Below, in pieces: positions 10,915 through 56,580 of a stretch of DNA of 64,000 nt. The translations under genes were made by a program, and so were the position numbers. The first letter of the stretch is position 1. Each line of letters opens with the position of its first letter. Where the stretch lies: the NCBI GenBank assembly GCA_964016885.1, contig OZ024740.1, positions 169,136,001-169,200,000 of the forward strand, in the 5' to 3' direction. Below the pieces are notes generated by a model. That model was not told the origin of the DNA. It did not search any database and saw nothing but the letters and a program-made list of their open reading frames with translations. The DNA comes from Eledone cirrhosa (lineage: Eukaryota).

Positions 10915-13900
10915 TATATGGGATAACAAGTTATAGGTAATCCAGTTAGAGGTTGTGAGTACTCTGCGTCGTGGATAATTTTAACGTACAGCTTTGTTTG
11001 AATCAACAAGATGCTTCCATAGTTATGCTGCATAACTATGAAAGCATCTTGTTGAGTCAAACAAAGCCGTATGTTAAAACTATCCACGACGCAGAGTACT
11101 CACAACCTCTAACTGGATTACCTATAACGATAACTTGTTATCCCATATACCCAGCTCCCACTAGGTTGAGCAACAACCTTAACGCACAGCACTAACATGG
11201 AAAAGCACCACATAAGCATGTCACTGAAAAACATACCTATACCTACAAACAAGGACTATACACTCGGCATGATGAAGCAGCGTACTAATGATTTCATCCG
11301 TCGAATCCGATGGAAGGCCTACCATTACGACAAAGGACACGCTAATAACACGGAGGAATTTACTAGGGAAAAATACGGATTCAAATCCTGCAAAAATCCA
11401 CCAAATAACCCCCAGCTCGATGCTTTCGAACTCGACCTCATGAACATAATAAGTGGAACTAAATTAAAAAAACGGACACATCACAACAAATTGCAAAACG
11501 ACATGCACTACTAAAAAAACTACGCAACACCAACGGTATTATAGTAAAAGCAGACAAAACATCAAACGTATACACCATGAGCCTCAATACATACAATAAT
11601 TTTATACGTCGGGAATTGCACAAAAAATACAAAAAACAACAACAACAGAATCTGCACTCACTAGCATTAATAAGGAAGGACTTAGCATAGTAAAAAAAAC
11701 TGAAAATATCTGATAGAACCGAGCCTCTAACCCCTTTTAACCCCACATTTAACCTAAAGTATCACAAAAATAATTTCGAAATAGACCCCACAATTAGATT
11801 AATATGTCCATTTAAGTCGGATATCGGTAGAATTAGCAAACATATACTAGATAGAGTAATCGCACAATTTAAGGAAAAATTAATAAGCTATGGGATAACA
11901 CTAACGAAGCAATAGACTGGTTCAGCAAAATAAACAGTAGAGAAACATCTAATTTCGTACAGTTCGACATTAATGACTACTACTCATCCACATCCCCAGT
12001 CACCCTGGGTAAAGCGCTAACCTTTGCCCAGAAAATTTCGGACCTTACCTCGGACGAAATTAAAATAATACTAGCTGCTAGAAGGACTATCATTAGATTC
12101 GAAAATAGTTAATGGGAACAAAAAAACCCAGATAAAATAGCTTCGATATCACAATGGGATCTAACCACTCAGCGCAGGTAACGGACTTGGTGGGAATATA
12201 TATAGCTTACAACTTACATAAGGAATTCAATAACCTCCAAGGTGGAATTTACAGAGACGATACACTCCTTCTAGCCAAAAACTTAAATAATCAAAACATG
12301 GAAAGATTACGAAAAAACAGAGTATTCTTCAACAAACTAGGCCTAGGTATCACTTTCGAACTTAACTCTAAAAAAGCAAATTTCTTAGATGTAACTCTCA
12401 ACCTAAGCACAGGATTAATAGAGCCCTTCCACAAGAATAACGAAAATCTAGCCTACATTAGTTATAACTCAAACCACCCCTGATCCATAATTAACTCCAT
12501 AGCACATAGGCGGGATATTCTGAGGGATATACTATCTTCGAACCTAGAAATGTTTAACGAACACGCAAACTATTATAACATAGCTTTACATAAGGCTCGA
12601 CATAGGGAGAAGCTGGAATACATACTAGATAGAGACAACAACAACAAACCTAACGACAACAACACTACCCGCTCATATAGAATTAACAAGCATAGGACTA
12701 AGCATAGAATTAGACAACGAGCACCAAAAATAACTGAACAGAACACTAATATAAGGACTCAAAAAAACTATAGAAGATCCAGAGATAGAAAGTACCTATG
12801 GTTCAATCCAATATTCAACTCCTCTATAAAAACTAAACTACCTTATACATTCTTTAAACTAATAGATAAGCACTTCCCTACACTACACAAATACCATAAA
12901 ATCTTTAATAGAAAAACTATAAAACTTTCCTACTCTACTGCAGCCAGCATAGAATCGCACATACGTAAGATCAACTACAAAAATATCTCTAAAGAAATTA
13001 ACCTACCAACATGCACCATAGTATAAAATACAAAACACAAACACATAACAACAACACAACCACAAACGCATCATAACGCATCACAACAAAACATTATTAG
13101 GCATAAATCACAACAAATTACAAAACCGCAACGATGAACCTGCACAAAACAAAACCTCAAATTGTAATTGGCACCTACTGGATAAGTCCCCACTACAGAA
13201 TAGATGCCTGGATTCGAGTATGGTATACCTGTGTACTGTAAATTCAGGCAACTCTACTTGGCACTACATAGGTTCCACGGCTGGGGAGTTCAAGAAAAGG
13301 TGGTACGTCCACAGACACTCCATGAAGAACCGTAAACTGGAGAATTCTACGACGCTCGCCAATAAAATCTGGCAGCTTAAAGACAAAAACATAGAATATA
13401 AGATTAGCTGGTCAAAATTATAGGTAACAAGAGCCTACAGCAACGGAATGTCCCACTGCGGGCTTTGTAATTTAGAACTACTACATATTTTAAGGTACAA
13501 TGGGATGCTGCTTAACAGCAAGATAGAAATATCTATTTTCTGTAGGCATAAAATAGCTACTAGATTCACAAACTTCAAACCAGCATGATTTGAACCGGCA
13601 ACCCCAAAGTTATAAGTGAACCACCTAGATTTTAACATATAGAATACACACCATCGCACTGCAACTGTCAAACGGTCAACTGGTCACTGGATCATAAATC
13701 TCTGAACATTTCTTTCACCTTCTCTCCCTGAAACAGCATCAACCCCATTAAGATAGAACAATCAGCAAAACATTTACAACAAACGTCTATCAAACGTCCC
13801 GTCATCCCTGGCCCATAAATCTCACACATGTATCCACCAATTAATCTCTAATTTATTGTTTTTTCTTTTATCTACCACTACATCGGACCCTCTACACGTA

Positions 13901-16320: not shown

Positions 16321-16467
16321 TTTTTGTCCACTACATCTGTGTGTTAGCACTCACTAGACCAGAATTCGAGAGCGTTAGTAGCAAAAGCAAGCAAAAACAA
16401 TTTTAACTTTTTTTAAATACCAAACAGCCTCCAGTTCTATGATACATAACTATTTGTTTTAAAATGG

Positions 16468-16541
<74 letters not shown>

Positions 16542-17553
16542 GGGTCAAGCAAAGACCGAGAAAACTGGGCGCCTGGCACACTGAGTGTGCCCAGGCGCTC
16601 ACCGCCCTCTGGCAGGCGGATCCGGTTATCAGTGGAGACTCCACCGCAACATTCTATAGAGGGCTGGTACGCAGCAGGTGCGACGACGCCCTCGGAGAAG
16701 CCCTAGACATGGAGGAGGACGAACTGGCCAGCCTGTTCGGTAGGACATTCAGCCCGGGACCTATGGACAACTTCCAGAAGTCCCTGGCCTGGCAGTGCTA
16801 CCGAGGGGCTTTACCCGTTCGAGAAAGGCTCTACAGACACGGGCGCCCGGGTAGGGACCCCGCCAAAAAGATCTGTCCCAGATGCGTGTGCGACGAGGAA
16901 ACCGTTGCACACGCATTGGTACACTGCTCGGGCGTAGCCGATCTGTGGGGCTATGTCGAACAACTGCTGTCAAGGGTGGGACCGATCCGGTTGACCACCG
17001 AGTCTATTGTAATGATCAAGCCGCCTCCCCCCTTCAAAGATGAAGCAGAGGCGGTGTTTCTGTGCGTAATAGCCATGGCGAAAGAGGTTGTATGGTGGAC
17101 GCGTCTGAAAGGACTGAGGTCGGGCACCTTTCTCTCTGGCCAACAACTGGTCCGTTTCTTCCGATATCATTTCGGAAGAAGGATCAGGATGGAGAGAGAG
17201 GTGCTGCACCCCAGCCGTTTCTATGAAAGATGGGTGAAAGTGGCGAGAATGGCCCGTGTGAATGGGCCTTCACTCTACATCAGACTATAGGTGAGGAAGA
17301 TGAAAGACCAAGGGAGCACCCCTTCTCTGTGCTCCTGAGGAGTAGGGTTGCACACTTTTTTTCGGGGGTGTGTGCGACCCCCCAAGGCGCCTCCTCTCTA
17401 TTGAGGATTTTGTTAAAAATTTTATTTTTTGTTATATCTTATTTTATTTTTATATTTTGTTATTGCCTCCTCCTTATTGAGGACGCCTTTTTGTGTAAAC
17501 TCCCCCCTTTGTACTTGTCCCACTTTTGATGCCCTAGTGGCAAATAAAAGAAA
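16542..17553 (+). mobile_element. 5'-truncated Tx1/L1-like non-LTR retrotransposon (ORF2 C-terminal zf-RVT + 3' UTR)
   Basis: ORF 16709-17290 with WQCYRGALPV..CPRCVCDEETVAHALVHC..W; nearly identical to 36120-37122; (TATC)n on both sides. Confidence 0.9.
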
Positions 17554-18592: not shown

Positions 18593-20632
18593 TATTTATC
18601 TAAAAATTAAAAAAACCTTCCATCATAAATATATGTAAAAACCTATATAAGTTATGTTCCAAATATCAGCTTAATAATGAGAAAGTTAGTGATATCACTA
18701 AAGCCCTCAAAATCTTGTTTATGTTCGAAATTATTTTAAAATCCTAGGCAGTATCTTTTTTTTATTTTTTTATTAAAAATACAGTACCTGGAATAATGGG
18801 CAAAGGACAAGGGAGACAACCTTACTTCAACTTAAAATGGTCTCCGATACAGATTCAAGATCGCCATGATCTTTTGGGTGGGAAATGAAACATCGAATAA
18901 ACCGAGCCCACAGATTTCTTTTCATTTCTTTTAAATTCCTTTTTAGTCGTTTCGGCCATAAACCCCGGTACTGCGGCTTGCAATGCAGATGACAGGTAGA
19001 CAAATACCGGGGTTTGTCCGGCCGCTCCCTCTTCCCACTGGTCGTTGTCGAGACCTCAGGCGTCCTCGGATCCCGTATTGCCGAGCTTCCCTGCAAAATC
19101 GGAACGTCAGCAGCCCGTCTGGGGAAGGAGCTTTGCGAGGTGGGGTGGCTGTAGCAGCGGGTGTCGCTGGTCATTGTCCGCGGAAATGCCTTTGCAGTTT
19201 AGTCCGCGGAGCGCTGCCCAAACACCATCCTGCCCTAGGCCCCGAGCCCATCACCATCTCCCTTTCCTCCTCCCTTTCTTCTGTGGCCCAAGAGTCCTTG
19301 CTTTTCTCCTCCCTTTCCTCTTATTTATGGCATTTATAGTCCTTTCCTCTATTTTCTCAAACAGCCATATCTGCCTTTCTTTACCCCTTCCCCTTTTTCT
19401 CATTACTTAAATTTGTTTTATCTTTCTTTTTCGTAGTTATGTAATTACCAATGGTTTTTAAGTCAACTCTGTGAGTGAAACACATTTATTGAGAATAAAC
19501 ACGTATATAAGGAAGAATTAACAATATGTAAAAAGAGATCCTAGGTTGTAACTTCATCCTAAACGGACGGTAGTCCGTTTAGTAATATTGTTGTGGTCGT
19601 GTTTTCGTTGGCAATCGTCTGTTTACGACAGTACAGCGCGGCTCTACTTTATTTAACTGAGATAAAACTTATATGAACATGAACAGTAGATCATTACGCA
19701 TCTTTTGGCTTAAAAATCTAGAAATTTGGTCCAGCGGGAAAAAGTTTATAATCAAAGTTTGCTGATAAATCTTGTGTTCAAGTGAGTGAGTAGTAAGCGT
19801 GACGCTAGGGGAGGTAATCCAGAAATGACGAATTTTTTTCGGCGGAACTCTTGTGATTGTGATTACGTTAGTCAAATGTAGTCAAATCGCCGAATCCCCT
19901 CCTCCTAATTGACTACGTCATTTCTGAACTTGCGTCAGTGTGAAACATTACTTCACTTTTCACTGCTAAAATGCTTTTTAAATACTTCGTTAAAAATTTA
20001 TGTTTATTATCAAAGCTATATTTTGTACCAATCTATCAATAGTTTGCGAAAATATAGGTAAACATGTGAGTTAAATTTTTTTTAATCGCATCGATCGCTT
20101 TGTCGCACCGAGTGTGACACTGTCTGACTGTCTGTCTGACTGTCTGTCTGACTGACACCTTTGTCGGACCGACATCTTTGTTCAAGCGGACAACTTTGTG
20201 TCACTGACACCTTTGTTCGTGCCGGCATCTCTGCGAAACACCGATGACAACAACCAGACCAAAATTTCACTTCATTCTTCATTCTTCTTCAAGACCGATC
20301 GCCGACCGATCGTATCGGTTGCTCTTCATATACCAGGTATTCAACAGATAGTTTGCACTTCTAGTATTATTAACAGTCGTGCGATTTTTTGTACCGATAG
20401 GTGCGAATAGTGCGATAGGTGCGAATAGTGTACAATATTTTCTGAGATTTGCATCCACTAATTTCGCTTAATTAAAAATGATGTTTCGCGGCTTTTTGAT
20501 CGGCTTATTCATTTTTTCCATGGCACAGGAAATGGAGTATTTCCATTTCGAATCAAAACTTTTCACTAAAATCGGGCAATTGGACTGATCAAATTCACAT
20601 TCATGCCAGTTTTTACAAATCCATAATTAGAA

Positions 20633-21274
20633 ATGTGGCGAAATCGAATGACCAGAAGGTATAAAAATATTAATTCAAATGTATTTACTTATCATACCAA
20701 CAAAAATACTTACATATTTTGTATACCTGGGGCCCGTCAGGGCCAGGTAATGTTAATCGCCAACATTGTTATCTGTTGTCCTTTTGTGAAAGTATTGGTG
20801 GTTCATGTCGGCTCTAATGATCTGAATCCTCGTCGCACCGTTGGCACTACAAAGCTGTGCAAAGTAATACAATAATTTTTGCCCAAGTATTTTTTATTAA
20901 TCATTTATTTGTAAATTAAGGACAAAGTGCCCATTCGAGGCACAAAACCGGAAAAACAGGGGAAGAGTCTCTTTGCAAGGCTACAGAAAATAGCGGAAAA
21001 GCACCACTGTACACCCATTTTCTACAGTGGTGTCATTCCACGTCCACAAAGTGTAATTGAAAATAAAAATGACTTGGGCAAGAGAAATTCTCGTTTGGAA
21101 AAGTTTAATTACTGCATGAAAGAAATGATTCAAAAATTGAACTTACCCAATCTTCACAACATTGAAAATTGGTCAAAATTTGACAAATCTGACTTCAAAC
21201 CAGATATGATTCATTTGAACAATGTTGGAAATCTTAAATTGACACACATTTTTGCCAATGTTTTTGCCACCTGA
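20633..21274 (+). CDS. SGNH/GDSL hydrolase-like gene with one 57-nt intron (20864-20920); N-terminus uncertain, possibly decaying
   Basis: Blocks II (CIPGAR), III (VVHVGSNDL), YSGVIPRP and V (DMIHLN..G). AAA|gtaata..ttaag|GAC joins the two track ORFs in phase 0 into ~194 aa. AATAAA at ~21311. Confidence 0.75.
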
Positions 21275-21454
21275 TCCTTGTTCTATGGCTGACTGACTAA
21301 TTTTGTGACTTAATAAAATGTCATCATACTAGTAATGCACAATGGTCATTTTTAAATTTAAATTTTATTAAATAGTTGTTGCTTGCATTGCCTTAAAATA
21401 GTAACAAGAATGTACACATACTTTTTAAAAATACATCATTATCAGTCAAATCAG

Positions 21455-21814
21455 TCAAATGTCACTAAAAGCCAGGTGGTCGATAACAACGTCTATAAGA
21501 TTAGTTACATGCTCACACATTGGATCTCCTCTCATCAATGGCATTGGGTTTCTGAGATAATCGTGGAGATAACTGATGAAGTCACAAATGAAGTGATGGT
21601 CTTCCAGTGTGAACAACTCCCTATATCCATTGATATATGTGATGGCTTCCGATTCAGAGGTGCATTTTATGAGGAATTCCATGCATCCGATTTTCAGTGA
21701 TTCAATGGGCATTTTATCAGAGATGATAAGGTATTTGACCACGTTTTGCTTTGTAAGTAAATTGGAGAGAATCACTGCAGTCAAAGTCATTTCTTTGCAT
21801 GGGTTTTTGTCCAT
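21455..21814 (-). CDS. Orphan 119-aa protein convergent with the SGNH-like gene
   Basis: Intact globular-looking ORF in AT-rich DNA, ATG directly after a ctttttag acceptor, minus-strand AATAAA at ~21363; no family recognised. Confidence 0.45.
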   Translation of the reverse strand: MDKNPCKEMTLTAVILSNLLTKQNVVKYLIISDKMPIESLKIGCMEFLIKCTSESEAITYINGYRELFTLEDHHFICDFISYLHDYLRNPMPLMRGDPMCEHVTNLIDVVIDHLAFSDI

Positions 21815-22092
21815 TCTAAAAAGTTAAAATGATAAAGTATTACTACTATATAACTTACATCTATTGTTGTAACACCATTGAAATGCACAAGTTTCACCAA
21901 TTCACTACTATGCACTAATCATCTCAAATGCATTCATGATTTACTAGCTAGCTTTGTCATTAAGCCAGTTGCCTCAACTAGATTGCAATTATACTCAAAA
22001 GAACTTTAAAATGTCAATCACTTGTCAGTAATTCACTATGATCATTTAATTATTAGATAGTTGTTGCTTGCATTGCCTTAAAAAATAGTAGA

Positions 22093-23152
22093 CCAGATAG
22101 AAAAATGCGTACAGCAAAAAAAAGTAATATTGTTGGAATATAAACCTTTAGAAATACAGGACAAGAAACTAAAATAAAACTTTAAAAGAATAGGACAAGA
22201 AACTAAGATAAAACTTTAAAATAATAGGACAAAAAAACTAAGATAAAACTTTAAAGAATTGGACAAGAAATAAAAATGTTTACAATAATATTAGTGGCAA
22301 AATTTGTTTATTCGTTTCCTGTGCTATGCCCCAGTATCTTCTTGATTAGTGCATAATAATTGTCATGCTCTCATTGTGCGTTGCCCCTGAGCGGTTGGTT
22401 CTGGTTGGGGTTGGTTGGCTGAGCAGTTCTGCTCCGTCAGAATGACCATTGCAAGAAGAATTGGCCGATGCAGCTGCAGGTCTCCTCCAAGAATGCACTT
22501 CTGGTCCCGCAACACCAGACGAAGATGGAGAAGACGACCGGGACAAGATGTCGACTCTGACCACCGACTACGGCACCTCCCTCAACCACCGGTCCTCCCT
22601 CCCTCTGTCCCGTCATCCCTCCAGTCCTCCTGCTCCCCCTTCCTGTACCAGAAAGCTGTGGCACGCATTCATATGGACTGACGGACTTGAACTCAAGGAC
22701 AAGATGCAAGGAGAAGATGGACGGGTTGGTCAAGATCAAGGATGAGCGGGACGACAAGACCGTCCGCTGCTGCTCAAGATCTGTGCTCATGGGCCCATGG
22801 GTCCATTCACATTATGCATGACACATGAGGCGTGTCGCCGAATGATGAAATAGGGGTATGGTTATGGCCCAATTGGTGTTCAAACCAGGATAAAATGATC
22901 CCCCGGTCTGACGACGACCTCTGAATGTGGAACCCAGAGCCTATGAATGTGGAACTCGATTTTTTACCAATAAAAATTTTGCCACTAATATTATTGTAAC
23001 ATTTTTTATTTTTTGTCCAATTCTTTAAAGTTTTATCTTAGTTTCTTGTCCTATTCTTTTAAAGTTTTATTTTAGTTTCTTGTCCTGTATTTTTAAAGGT
23101 TTATATTCCAACAATATTACTTTTTTTTGCTGTACGCATTTTTCTATCTGGT
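22093..23152. repeat. Long inverted repeat (arms ~22093-22306 and ~22974-23152) with internal ~32-nt subrepeats
   Basis: accagatagaaaaatgcgtacagc..ttagtggcaaaattt is mirrored on the right; the unit ggacaagaaactaagataaaactttaaa occurs 3x in the left arm and 2x in the right. Confidence 0.92.
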
Positions 23153-23167
23153 TTAACTATTATTCTG

Positions 23168-23380
23168 TTGGCTGTATCGGTAGAGCATCGGATACCGTGC
23201 TGCATAGCATACAGTTATGGTCCTTTATATTCTAAGTTCAAATCCCGCCGAGGTTAGCTTTGCCTTTCATGGCCCTTACGGGGCCGATAAAATAAAGCAC
23301 CAGTAATGTACTGGGGTCGATTTAATCGACTTAACCCTCCCCTAAAACTTCTGGCCTTGTGCCTATATTAGAAATCATTA
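23168..23380 (+). mobile_element. SINE, major family copy
   Basis: Same A/B boxes and core as 16130-16320. Confidence 0.85.
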
Positions 23381-24036
23381 TTCTGAGAAAGAGAGAGAGA
23401 AGTATAAATACATTGCCGAAAATACATAGCCCATTGTGCAAAGATGAGACACCAAACGCTGTATGTAGAGTAACAGCTATATATAAAACGATACTAAGGA
23501 TTCAAACTATAAATAGGAATTCACAATGTTCGTCACAAGTATGAAAATACACTCTTGACAGGTGCAATGTGTCCGAATACGGAAGAGCCAAATTCCCATC
23601 GTTATCACCCCCATCTCTCTCGCCCTCCCCATCTCTCTGCATAGTGAGCAAATGGGGTCCCACGTGCTGGCCGCCCCACAGTCTCGGCGACAGAATGGAG
23701 AAGGCGTTTCCCCGGAGGATGGTAAGTGAGATGCGCTGGAAGAGCTATTCATCTCGCGAAGCTCACACCTGCGGCTGGCCAGCTCAGATGCTTTATTTAT
23801 TGACCCCCGAAAGGATAAAAACCCATGTTGACCACATCTCTGTCAATTCGCCGCCTTCAACTAAACTGTTCTCCCCTACAAATTGTCAATATTCTTTTAA
23901 GGAATTTCTAAAGTTTAGCTCCATACCACTTACAACAATTTCCGACGCATATTTCTATATTTCGCATAACACAGTAGGATGCCATGAAACCATGAATAGA
24001 AATGAAACACTCAGTGATAGTCGGAGAATTAAAATG

Positions 24037-29666: not shown

Positions 29667-31305
29667 AACCCTGGGAAATACGATGTATTTGTTTTGAAAG
29701 TTTTGGATTTGATATCCAGCAACGCTATCCAACAGTGATCAGCCTTGCAGTCCATCTAGAAAATGGACAGAGAGTGTATTTCACTGAGACCACTGCTCAT
29801 CAGTTGGCACAAGCACCACCTGACTCTACTCTAACTGCTTTTTAATCCCTCCTATATGCTAACATCCCAACATACTACACCTGGTCCAATTGCAAGACCT
29901 GGAATTGAAGGAAGCAGGGTCATTTAGTGGAAGGTTATGAATTCAAGGTAAGTGACGCTATTGGGCATGTTTACAATGCCCACCCCATCAACAGAGATTG
30001 TTTTTATTTACGGGTACTTCTGCATATTGTTCAAGGACCAACGTCATTTGAGGACCTCAGGTGCTTTGGAGGAAGAGTGTGCGCAACATACCAAGAACCA
30101 TCTAAAGAGCATGGACTCCTACATGACAATGGACATTGGAAGAAGAGCCTAAGGGAAGCAGCAGTCACTCAAGTAACCAATCAAATAAGCCAGTTGCTTG
30201 CTACAATATTCACAGCATGTGGAATTGATAAAGCTCATCTACTCTGGCAGGAATACAAAAACAATATGTCGGACGACTATCTACACCTTGCCCAAAGACT
30301 TCATGACAATATGTATATGGAATATACCTCCAGGATTTATAATCAAGCTCTCTGCGGCCTGTCCCATCGAGTTCAGGCAATGAATAGCATTGCGGGATGC
30401 CAGATCCAGATGAAGAAATGAAGGTAACACAATAAGGTTTTCAAGAGACAAATTACGATATTCAAGCATTGCGTAAGTTTGTGAATAAAAATGAACCTTG
30501 ATTGGTGGATGACCAGAAATACACCTACCACAACATCATGAAAAACAATCAAAATGACAGGGGAGGACTTTTCTTCATCGATGCTCCTGCTGGCACAGGT
30601 AAGACATTACTCATAGACCTGCTTGCAAAAGTTCACCAAAAGCAACATATTTCCCTTGCTGTGGCTTCAGGTGGCATTGCAGCAACACTTCTTGATGGAA
30701 GAAGAACTGCACACTCCATGTTTAAGCTGCCCATAGATCTCACACGACCTGACGAATCTTTTTGCAACACCAAGAAGAACTCCCCCAAGGGTAAGTTTCT
30801 GCAAACATGCAAGATGATAATTTGGGACGAAGCTACCATGAGCCATAAATGAGCAATTGAAGCTTTGGACAGGATCTGAGAGAAAATACTTTCATAATGT
30901 GACAATGGTTCTCGGTTTCAGAGGAACTCAGCCTGTAGTTCCCCGTGCGACCAAATCTGATCAGATCAATGCCTATCTGAAAACCTCCAGTTTCTGGCCC
31001 CACTTTCAGTGGCTGAGCCTTACAACCATTGTGCAAGTGCACTTGAATGGTGATGAAGGTGTCAATGAGTTTGTCATCCAACTACTTAAATTGGGAAATG
31101 GACTACTTGAAAAGGACCAGATTCAGTTGTCATTTGGCCATATCATTGAAACAGAACAAGAACTGATTGTCAGACATTCAGATGAGACAATGTGATCCCA
31201 AATGTCTCTAGGGACGATCAATCTTAGCACCGAAAAATGTTGTGAAAGAAATGAACAGAAGGCTGCTGGACATGTTACCAGGAGCGAGAAGATGCTACAA
31301 ATCAG
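29665..31305 (+). pseudogene. Helitron Rep/Hel fragment (PIF1-like helicase), disrupted
   Basis: YPTVISLAVHLENGQRVYF, FYLRVLLHIVQGPTSFEDLR, FFIDAPAGTGKT (Walker A), AVASGGIAATLLDG.RTAHSMFKLP, IIWDEATM (Walker B); stops and frameshifts. Confidence 0.92.
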
Positions 31306-34115: not shown

Positions 34116-37100
34116 GGGATGGACACACGCGTGAAACTTGCTGAGTAAGTTCTGCTTAAATTTCTATAGAAATTCTTGACTGTAAACTTTCATTTTGTAT
34201 CATTTTGTAGAGGGACTGCCAGGTCAAATTTTGATCTGGTCAGTATCTCAAAATATTTTACGCCTTTAGGCGAAATAGTTAACAAAAAATTTTTTTTTGA
34301 AAACCTAACATTTTTTAAAAATGGCTGAAGCTTCTTCACCAAAATTCGAAGGTGGAAAGGGGAAGATATGCTTACAGCAGATATCAAAGACAAAGGTCAG
34401 CCAGAGGAAGGATTTTCTCCACCTGCTGACCGACAACTTGACGTTGCCATGGCAACAAACCAAACAACCAGCGGCACCAGCAACAACAACAACAACAATG
34501 CTACGGACGAAAACAACACCAACAACAATAACAATAACAACAACAACAAGACCAATAACTGTGATAACAACAACAATGATAACAACAACACCACCAACTA
34601 CAACATCAACACAAACAAGGAAAAGGTCTCCTTCGCCCAGACGGCAAGGAAAACCCTCGACTATCTGCCAGTAGATATAACCAAAGCGAAGGAGCTACTG
34701 GCAGATGCCAAAAAATACATAATGTACGGGGAAAATGGATCATTTTCGACCCCCCCCCCCGGAACTAAAAAGCCAGAGACTCCTAAACACTGTCATGTTT
34801 AGGACAGTCTCAAACAAAAGCAAAAAACCAGCTCAACCATCACAGAGTGAGATAGAGCTGGTTTTAAAAGATGTCATGAAAGACATCATATTCATTCAGA
34901 AGGATAGACTCTATGGGAGTCTATCCATTCTCATGAAGGACAGGGACACGGCAGCGAAACTGTCAATAAAACCAATCACATCCACCGCATACACCTTCTA
35001 CCCTACGTACATGGGTAGAAAGACACACAAAATAAAAATTCACACCATCCTGCCGATTATGGACATATGGTGGGTTTTGACAGGTTTCCTGAACCTAGAC
35101 GATGACACACTTTCCATGGGAAAGGCATCGGGTGACGCGTTCAGTGGAACGAGCCTCGAACTTGGAGTTCAAATGAGGCCCGAAAGGATCGCCCAGATCC
35201 CTGAACGCGTCATACTGGATGATCAAACTTTTATCAACATTACCGTTGAGGGTAGGCTGCCCTCGTGTTACCTCTGTGGAGCCAGAAGTCACCTGAGAGC
35301 TGTCTGTCCTCAACTTAATAAGAAAACCCCAATCCTGCCTACACCACCAACAACTGCACAACCAACACAATCACCACAACCACCACTACAAAAACAACAA
35401 CCACAGCTCAAACCAAAACAAAACAATGTCCAACCCATCCCCCCCCCCCCACTAAAAAAAAAACAATTTCCAAAACACCCGCACCGCAAACACAACCCGA
35501 AAATCTACCCCCTCCCCACCAACGCGGAAGATGACCCTCGTTCGTCGTCAGACGAGGAGGAGCACTTCCACACAATCAAAAGAAAAAAAAGAAAACACAC
35601 CTCAGACACACAAATGAAAACAACCCCTCCCCAAAACATAACACTGACACCAACACAAAAGAGCACACAACAACAGCAAACAAAAAACACCACACAAAAA
35701 CAAAAACATGCATACACATACATAAACACAAGAAAAAAAAACTGTTAAACATTGTGTACAACAACAATTTAGTAAAAACCCAAGGGCCTAACTTCACCCA
35801 GGCAGGAGATTTCCCCCACCTCAAAATGATTAAGGCCCCAGAGGACACATATAAAACACTAAAAAACAACTTTAAAGAGGATGTAGCCCCCCCTCCCCGC
35901 GCACTCTTCCAATTCCTTTGGCGGGCTCCTATGGTGAGGAGATCCATCTTCTGTCAACACCCTTCGAAAGGAGGGCTGGGGATGCCGTGGCTGATGATGC
36001 GTAAACACGCATTAAGGCTACGGCACCTCCAGATATTCCTCACCGGTCAACCGGTGTGGGCCCCGTTTGTGAGGCGAGCCTTTCCCAGACTCGTCTCACT
36101 CACCGAGCTGCAATCCTGCGTCAAGCAAAGACCGAGAAAACTGGGCGCCTGGCACACCGAGTGTGCCCAGGCGCTCACGGCTCTCCGGCAGGCGGACCCG
36201 GCTGTCAGTGGAGAATCCACCTCGTCATTCTATAGAGGGCTGGTGGTTAGCAGGTGCGACGACGCCCTCGGAGAAGCCCTAGGCATGGAGGAAGACGAAC
36301 TGGACAACCTGTTCGGTAGGACATTCAGCCCGAGACCCATGGATAACTTCCAGAGGTCCCTGGCCTGGCAGTGCTACCGAGGGGCTCTGCCCGTTCAAGA
36401 AAGGCTCTACAGACACGGGCGCCCGGGTAGGGACCCCTCGAAAAAGATCTGTCCCAGATGCGTGTGCGACGAGGAAACCGTTGCACACGCTTTGGTACAC
36501 TTCTCGGGCATTGCCGATCTGTGGGGCTATGTCGAACAACTGCTGTCAAGGGTGGGACCGATCCGGTTGACCACCGAGTCTATTGTAACGATCAAGCCGC
36601 TTCCCCTCTTCAAAAACGAAGGAGAGGAGGTGTTTCTGTGCGTAATAGCCATGGCGAAAGAGGTTGTATGGTAGACGCGTCTGAAAGGACTGAGGTCAGA
36701 CACCTTTCTCTCTGGCCAACAACTGATCCGTTTCTTCCGATATCATTTCGGAAGAAGGATCAGGATGGAGAGAGAGGTACTGCACCCCAGCCGTTTTTAT
36801 GAAAGATGGGTGAAAGTGGCGAGAATGGCCCGTGTGAATGGGCCTTCACTCTACATCAGACTATAGGTAAGGAAGATGAAAGACCAAGGGAGCACCCCTC
36901 TCTGTGCTCCTGAGGAGAAGGGTTGCACACTTTTTTTTCGGGGGTGTGTGCGACCCCCCAAGGCGGATTTTGTTACAAAATTTATTTTGTTATATTTTAT
37001 TTTATTTTTATACTTTTATATCTTGTTATTGCCTCCTCCATATTGAGGACGCCTTTGCATGTAAACTCCCCCCTTTGTACTTGTCCCACTTTTGATGCCC

Positions 37101-52679: not shown

Positions 52680-56580
<3,901 letters not shown>

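Follow-up and report, generated by a model that had tools for sequence, protein, structure and literature searches.

A probable non-autonomous Helitron of HLE2-type parentage carrying an esterase remnant in the genome of Eledone cirrhosa

Helitrons are transposed by Rep nicking, strand displacement, formation of a circle and pasting of that circle into a new site. This study concerns a compact cassette in a 64,000-nucleotide stretch of the Eledone cirrhosa genome (GenBank assembly GCA_964016885.1, contig OZ024740.1, positions 169,136,001 to 169,200,000 of the forward strand; hereafter the window), within which a whole element of 3,595 bp lies on the plus strand at 19557-23151 and holds the remnant of an SGNH-type esterase gene, a convergent orphan open reading frame (ORF) and a long inverted repeat. 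We regard it as very probable that this element derives by internal deletion from a young 12.6-kb Helitron with an HLE2-type transposase, is non-autonomous and is likely copied by the rolling-circle route through the RepHel protein of full-length copies.

Comparisons with published systems refer to those parts of the cited papers that were available. With respect to the transposase, the closest described system is the UCH-bearing subgroups c and d of HLE2, the lineage for which HELIANO uses DUF6570 as a marker (PMC11417382). These subgroups have in common with the present family a RepHel with DUF6570 and UCH, subterminal inverted repeats and non-autonomous deletion derivatives, but here the ends (TC..CTRR, inserted between A and T) are an HLE1 signature, and UCH lies within the RepHel reading frame, whereas the same paper lists it among separate-ORF domains. 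With respect to the ends, FoHeli3-5 of Fusarium oxysporum, whose 5' hairpin without a 3' hairpin (PMC5148889) was named HLE2-reverse (PMC11417382), and the proto-Helentron of Phytophthora (PMC4067079) come nearest. The present element differs in residing in an animal genome, in its strict A-T target, none being established for FoHeli3-5 in the available text of PMC5148889, and in an inverted right-end copy of ~215 bp enclosing a ~670-bp loop, which is not described for either system in the available parts of PMC5148889 and PMC4067079.

The cargo likewise has partial precedents. An intron-containing SGNH gene amplified by a Helitron is known from texim of fish (PMC4021074). Texim can reach 15 exons, and the Helitron's coding region lies either 3' of the gene or within its last intron, whereas the gene described here has five predicted exons, lies downstream of RepHel and is fused to NADAR. 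YbiA-type NADAR domains occur on mobile elements in an Ectocarpus Gypsy Pol and an oyster Tx1 ORF1, yet those are intronless protein parts of retroelements, while here a DNA transposon carries a predicted spliced NADAR-SGNH fusion; the reports of NADAR in mobile elements that we found concern retroelements only (PMC12477816). A further trait, a hydrophobic run followed by VELNPGP close to the start of the main ORF, is shared with 2A-like peptides of non-long-terminal-repeat (non-LTR) retrotransposons, but here it belongs to a Helitron and has Cys in place of the consensus Asp (PMC3708506). NADAR, SGNH and BTB are not among the stably carried domains of HELIANO in Table S11 of PMC11417382, as far as that source was available. 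In the literature searched, outside of which lay Repbase Reports and subscription journals, neither NADAR cargo nor a RepHel 2A-like motif nor a long co-evolving 3' inverted repeat was found for Helitrons. We consider this a new family of a known transposon class, and Repbase and the HELIANO supplementary figures, which lay outside the comparison, may contain similar elements.

Searching the organism's own genome (3.0 Gb) with window positions 20450-22050 gave 620 first-look candidates, and the 40 that were scored all showed 98-100% identity. Most of the 10-kb stretches around 39 candidates match the window from 19556 to ~23155 and have unrelated flanks. A 27-mer of the left end has 315 exact matches in the genome (control: 0) and a 20-mer of the right end has 849, 405 of them in inner-arm context and 444 remaining, and copies diverge from the column majority by a mean of only 0.65-0.84%. 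Copies of this young, internally deleted kind number several hundred, and the element is one of them. The preliminary description of this locus had taken it for a foreign fragment of a larger mobile element beginning at 19680; its foreignness and its larger relative are borne out by the hundreds of dispersed copies and by a 12.6-kb parent with RepHel, but the left end common to the copies is 19557, and the element here is non-autonomous yet complete, possessing both ends, rather than a fragment.

The boundaries are set by these common ends, with a host A at 19556 and a host T at 23152 outside the element. The left end reads TCC and runs into a hairpin with a 10-bp stem (19557-19582, plus strand), which folds at -10.2 kcal/mol both in the family of the window and in a sister family, one base pair being swapped on both sides between the two. 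It is followed by a 13-bp subterminal inverted repeat (19581-19593, plus strand), identical in the sister family. The right end, which includes the outer arm of the long inverted repeat (22974-23151, plus strand), terminates in CTGG; its own 13-bp repeat (23109-23121) stops 30 bp short of the terminus, and the last 45 nt fold at only -1.2 kcal/mol. Both families have the 13-bp subterminal repeat and lack a stable 3' hairpin. An A precedes TCC in 48/48 ends selected without A in the pattern (89/89 when A-selected ends are added), and a T follows CTGG in 71/71 copies. A host repeat carries two copies, L064 and L091, at one identical site. Its empty paralogous sites gave 2,227 matches, 100 of which were listed, and most of those listed equal the left flank joined exactly to the right flank, with zero bases duplicated and zero lost. 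Insertion targets are frequently (TA)n; among 22 copies with other flanks, 15 show no flank match, six a 2-nt match and one a 4-nt match, which is the chance level for AT-rich flanks.

The autonomous partner was found in longer copies, where the preliminary description had suggested that replication genes be sought. The Rep DNA of copy L099 led to 33 candidate places, among them 20 near full length at 96-100% identity, a number of partial ones, two at 85-86% and four loci at 64-69%; in these four no NADAR, SGNH or orphan match was detectable. A parent of 12,628 bp with both ends and all modules lies on the minus strand at C28:42,936,072-42,948,699, in the order left end, RepHel (starting from the ATG at window position 20478), NADAR-SGNH, orphan and inverted repeat. 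In Pfam, RepHel of the parent type matches DUF6570, Helitron_like_N, PIF1, UvrD_C_2 and UCH, with 85-94 bits for Helitron_like_N, 73-92 bits for PIF1 and 54.7 and 65.4 bits for DUF6570 (cut-off 24.3); Helitron_like_N, DUF6570, PIF1 and UCH are all above cut-off. The protein ends in UCH, and Exo_endo_phos, the Pfam family of the APE endonuclease, is unmatched. In the best copy of the sister family, RepHel-UCH reads as a single frame of 2,412 codons interrupted by one stop, and the ratio of nonsynonymous to synonymous substitution rates (dN/dS) of Rep between the two families is 0.147.

Taken together, a Rep of HUH type with a PIF1 helicase in the autonomous partner and insertion without target-site duplication identify a Helitron. 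Its transposase is placed with HLE2 because DUF6570 and UCH are present (PMC11417382), and the 13-bp subterminal inverted repeats fall within the HLE2 range of 12-16 nt. The ends have the HLE2-reverse/FoHeli3-5 arrangement (the left repeat preceded by a 5' hairpin, the 3' side free of a hairpin and the right repeat 20-40 bp away from the terminus) and not that of canonical HLE2, which has a target between two Ts and a 3' stem-loop. With canonical Helitrons (HLE1) the element shares the 5' TC, the 3' CTRR and the A-T target, but it has neither the GC-rich hairpin just before CTRR nor an HLE1-type Rep devoid of DUF6570, and the APE endonuclease fused to RepHel that defines Helentrons is absent. 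Among the Rep motifs, YFWR fits the Helentron-type signature, while GAP fits neither GSP nor GLP (signatures from PMC4067079). A quick tree of 50 Rep cores, with no HLE1 row, places the family among relatives that bear UCH or OTU and lack an endonuclease, apart from the endonuclease-bearing ones. Both families have a 2A-like motif, CVELNPGP, near the RepHel N-terminus after a hydrophobic run, whose skipping activity is doubtful because Cys replaces the consensus Asp. The canonical motif D(I/V)ExNPGP occurs near the N-terminus in 2/49 related RepHels, the HLE2 proteins P0034 and P0048 from public assemblies.

Other RepHel pieces were noted along the way. Decayed pieces flanking copies L028 and L046 were considered as partners and rejected as unrelated neighbours, the one at L046 having the canonical QKRGLPHAH; in the window, a frame of 170 codons at 29909-30418 (plus strand) resembles by eye the decayed canonical piece beside L028, with no Pfam match. 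At L158:1463-8900 (G000:C12 ~9,077,500-9,084,900, minus strand), Parvovirus-like ORFs with two Parvo_NS1 matches and one PLA2-like domain follow immediately downstream of an HLE2 RepHel that is divergent and broken, either inside that Helitron or adjacent to it.

The window copy has arisen from such a parent by a ~9.1-kb deletion, whose junction at 20620-20623 (plus strand) joins the start of RepHel to SGNH block I, so that YKS replaces GDS and the fusion point is the catalytic serine codon of the esterase. In 49 copies this site reads YK(S/F/P)II (42) or GD(S/L)II (7), and the fused RepHel-esterase frame is open in 32/40 copies of window type and frameshifted in the window copy. The preliminary description saw no replication enzyme in the window, which is nearly right: what is left are the first ~48 RepHel codons (20478-20622, plus strand), which continue into RepHel in L100 and L108 and are frameshifted here, and in L099 the sequence likewise runs on from 20622 into the Rep gene. 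Downstream on the plus strand follow a remnant of NADAR-SGNH exon 3 (20623-20658), a predicted 55-nt intron (20659-20713) with AC as acceptor where 49/54 copies have AG, exon 4 (20714-20863) with SGNH blocks II and III (PGA, GSND), a predicted in-frame intron of 57 nt (20864-20920) that has two stops in the window copy, and exon 5 (20921-21274) with block V (DMIH) and the stop codon. The 57-nt intron had been recognised in the preliminary description, and its GT..AG bounds are kept across copies (donor GT in 52/54, acceptor AG in 54/54), while the 55-nt intron had been missed. The SGNH-type motifs reported there are likewise present (GSND at 20810, DMIH at 21203), and the Pfam match is weak: exon 5 matches Lipase_GDSL_3 at E 0.012 in the window and 0.0035 in copy L065, both below the curated cut-off. 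With no GDS, a frameshift and a lost acceptor, the window-copy esterase is, judging by its sequence, a dead broken chimera.

Deletion has also shaped other copies. We sampled 40 of the 64 left ends on contig C1, omitting copies already collected, which biases the sample against the window type, and most of the last-listed ends; 7/40 were of window type, 10/40 retained exon 4 and 22/40 retained the orphan. The deletion joints 19830>21949, 19831>21092 and 22304>22962 are present in public contigs (four runs of one study, contig kind unspecified), and the same four runs show the unspliced form of the esterase region, which speaks neither for nor against splicing. In L064 and L065 a different sequence replaces 20276-20619, and the esterase there starts IVGDSII. 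Composite copies with a double left end and a single right end were also found (L099, L126, L124), and double left ends have been described for FoHeli (PMC5148889). A joint of the two ends, the signature of a circle, was not seen among the joints listed (15 of 144). At L111-L113 (G000:C28:136.457-136.487 Mb), intron 2 of the NADAR-SGNH gene in a copy of the window's family harbours, at an A-T site, an element of the sister family that has two left ends.

In long copies, the predicted NADAR-SGNH gene comprises five exons with 1,008 nt encoding 335 aa. The preliminary description had inferred a stand-alone esterase; in the parent, the esterase is instead the C-terminal half of this predicted protein, of which the window retains no more than a catalytically truncated remnant. 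Exons 3-5 supply the SGNH blocks, and blocks I (GDS), II (G), III (GxND) and V (DxxH) can all be read in L065 and L104. The 163 positions of PF08719 (NADAR) are matched in order by exon 1 (4-67), exon 2 (82-115) and exon 3 (118-162) with 18.7, 15.8 and 13 bits, each under the 35.1-bit cut-off, their rough sum of 47.5 being above it, and reading through intron 1 gives a NADAR match at E 5.7e-4. Searches for relatives of the SGNH region in protein collections gave none (28 candidates), sequence searches of PDB with the passengers returned chance-level rows only, and NCBIfam gave a weak TIGR02464 row only. Searching the genome with PF13472 brought up a single unrelated SGNH ORF without introns but not the split gene of the element, so family searches of this type are insensitive here. 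Intron 2 contains, at L065:1270-1450, a short block of A/T-tract repeats suggestive of a small inserted element. At L167:6579-7979 (G000:C18:42,430,579-42,431,979, minus strand), an intronless ORF of 466 aa combines a coiled-coil-like region with an SGNH domain (Lipase_GDSL_2 above cut-off, GCS at block I); it has the look of a LINE (long interspersed element) ORF1-type esterase and is possibly single-copy.

For the family as a whole, the mechanism would run as follows. Rep would nick one end, most likely the left, TC/hairpin end, since this is the end that composite copies have twice, against a single right end. The helicase would then peel off a single strand, whose ends would join into a circle, and the circle would insert at an AT site, usually within (TA)n. 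Copies of window type would be mobilised in trans by the RepHel of full-length copies, with the SGNH sequence and the orphan carried as passengers. Several observations weigh against this reading of the element as an HLE2-type Helitron. The genome search for an empty site of the window copy itself gave 0 matches. No fully open RepHel was present among the copies fetched, the reference alone among 22 Rep-core copies is free of indels and stops (against itself), and the only copy fetched with both ends and all modules is itself broken, although some of the RepHel breaks could be assembly errors. The target lies between A and T where HLE2 usually has two Ts. As for the cargo, the NADAR and SGNH exon matches each stay below the Pfam cut-off when taken alone, exon 5 has 0 relatives at E 0.001 in 1.84 billion sequences, and exon 3 has none among longer proteins (21 candidates).

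In addition to this explanation, the NADAR-SGNH protein might be a working accessory enzyme that aids transposition in trans, NADAR freeing guanines in the exposed single-stranded intermediate, or in its RNA, of ADP-ribose and the esterase acting on lipids or acyl groups; we consider this rather doubtful. It is consistent with L100, in which all five exons are stop-free with GT/AG bounds and all SGNH catalytic motifs are present, with the Glu in the last NADAR strand (LVE), which is the residue named for the YbiA family (PMC11125620), and with the recurrence of NADAR and SGNH on other mobile elements (PMC12477816, PMC3905857, PMC4021074). Nor was a host parent of the gene seen, since each of the seven loci detected through DNA of exons 2-3 falls within a copy of the element. 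However, L100 is one of five long copies examined, the other four having a frameshift or stop, the commonest subfamilies have deleted the gene, as the C1 sample shows for exon 4, and the sister family has transposed without either NADAR-SGNH or the orphan, which makes both passengers dispensable. Passenger variants among copies are near neutral as well (ratios of 0.81 and 1.11 for singletons and, from few sites, of 0.43 and 0.71 for shared variants), a weak test because such variants are expected in copies decaying after insertion. Some NADARs reverse guanine ADP-ribosylation of DNA (PMC11125620), and a protective role on the intermediate, drawn by analogy, would be speculative, as would a lipid role for the esterase modelled on PMC3905857.

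A broader extension, which we hold to be unlikely, would see in these families an animal HLE2 lineage combining converged TC..CTRR ends at A-T sites, a right-end snap-back of 200 bp, a transposase split by the 2A-like motif and a NADAR-esterase that takes ADP-ribose off the single-stranded intermediate and so acts as counter-defence against host DNA ADP-ribosylation.

The long inverted repeat of the right end, already recognised in the preliminary description, consists of three parts: an inner arm (22093-22305, minus strand), which repeats the right end in inverted orientation and includes tandem units of 34 bp; the outer arm (22974-23151); and between them a GC-rich loop (22306-22973) that is deleted in one subfamily. 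The arms are identical at 175/177 aligned bases. Over the last 60 nt, inner and outer arm agree to 100% within each family and to 94.8% between families, so the arms change together. The loop sequence differs between families, and its orientation is flipped in 2/88 loop-bearing copies. On the single strand formed during transposition the two arms would pair with each other, and such folding with template switching, which we infer, would explain both the identical arms within a family and the occasional loop flips. That the module at 22093-23151 is instead an independent miniature inverted-repeat transposable element (MITE) which inserted near the element's end and is now its terminus seems to us very unlikely. 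Long inverted arms would suit a MITE, as would the TCTA context after the inner arm, which resembles the targets at the outer arm, but inner-type matches (405) are about as many as the remaining ones (444), which leaves little room for solo copies, the arms include the Helitron's own 13-bp subterminal repeat, the module recurs in the sister family with a family-specific end and a different loop, and the ends show no duplication. In the sister-family loop (L153:930-1544), a frame of 205 codons has a Cys/His pattern that recalls, in our own reading, a PHD finger, with no PHD match in Pfam.

An endogenous DNA virus, as the preliminary description had proposed, or a piece of a LINE, Ngaro or Penelope element with an ORF1-type esterase is extremely improbable, the element being a Helitron and so of a known class. 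The fold-back ends do recall the terminal hairpins of parvoviruses. SGNH esterases also occur in LINE ORF1 (PMC3905857), but the parent encodes RepHel, with no capsid, polymerase, reverse transcriptase or recombinase among its long ORFs, its ends are exact at A-T, its introns are retained and there is no Rfam match such as hammerhead; this refutes the idea for the whole element, whereas the passenger gene alone may be of viral or retroelement origin. Ordinary single-copy host genes, which GT-AG introns and poly(A) signals might suggest, are practically out of the question given hundreds of dispersed copies with unrelated flanks.

The second passenger is the orphan ORF of 119 aa (21455-21814, minus strand), flanked on either side by a degenerate direct repeat (21314-21403, 22007-22090). 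Its convergence on the esterase gene, with AATAAA signals ~50 nt apart, was correctly read in the preliminary description: the two signals (21312-21369; 21312 on the plus, 21364 on the minus strand) are 52 nt apart. The orphan is free of stops and indels in 58/71 copies and has no Pfam match. By language-model features it reaches 0.91-0.92 to clusters with BTB/BACK on 16-70% of their members, the top row at 0.94 being an unnamed cluster, and a single-sequence structure model is all-helical with a predicted local distance difference test (pLDDT) score of 44. We treat a BTB/BACK relation as a lead only.

The surroundings of the element are rich in repeats. A very high-copy repeat resembling a short interspersed element (SINE) lies at 23168-23382, starting 16 bp past the element's right end, and at 14 other places in the window. 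The scarcity of SINEs in the cassette, noted in the preliminary description, is real but not special, as a single-SINE probe shows gaps of 12 and 15 kb elsewhere in the window, and the few repeats in the element reflect a young insertion that had no time to collect them. Further features of the window are a retroelement fragment at 16463-17287 with a zf-RVT match at 16463, Penelope-like and LINE ORF1-like pieces recognised by eye at 12484-13023 and 34723-36671, and a (TA)n array of 3.8 kb at 52736-56577.

In conclusion, the cassette belongs to a well-delimited, young Helitron family whose parent can be traced. The family shows that 'reverse' HLE2 ends also occur in an animal and is, after that of fish (PMC4021074), the second case in which Helitrons carry SGNH cargo. 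For annotation based on ends it is of consequence that TC..CTRR at A-T sites is not enough to recognise a canonical Helitron. If NADAR does act on the transposition intermediate, host ADP-ribosylation would be a defence against rolling-circle transposons, and animal NADARs would gain a testable role.

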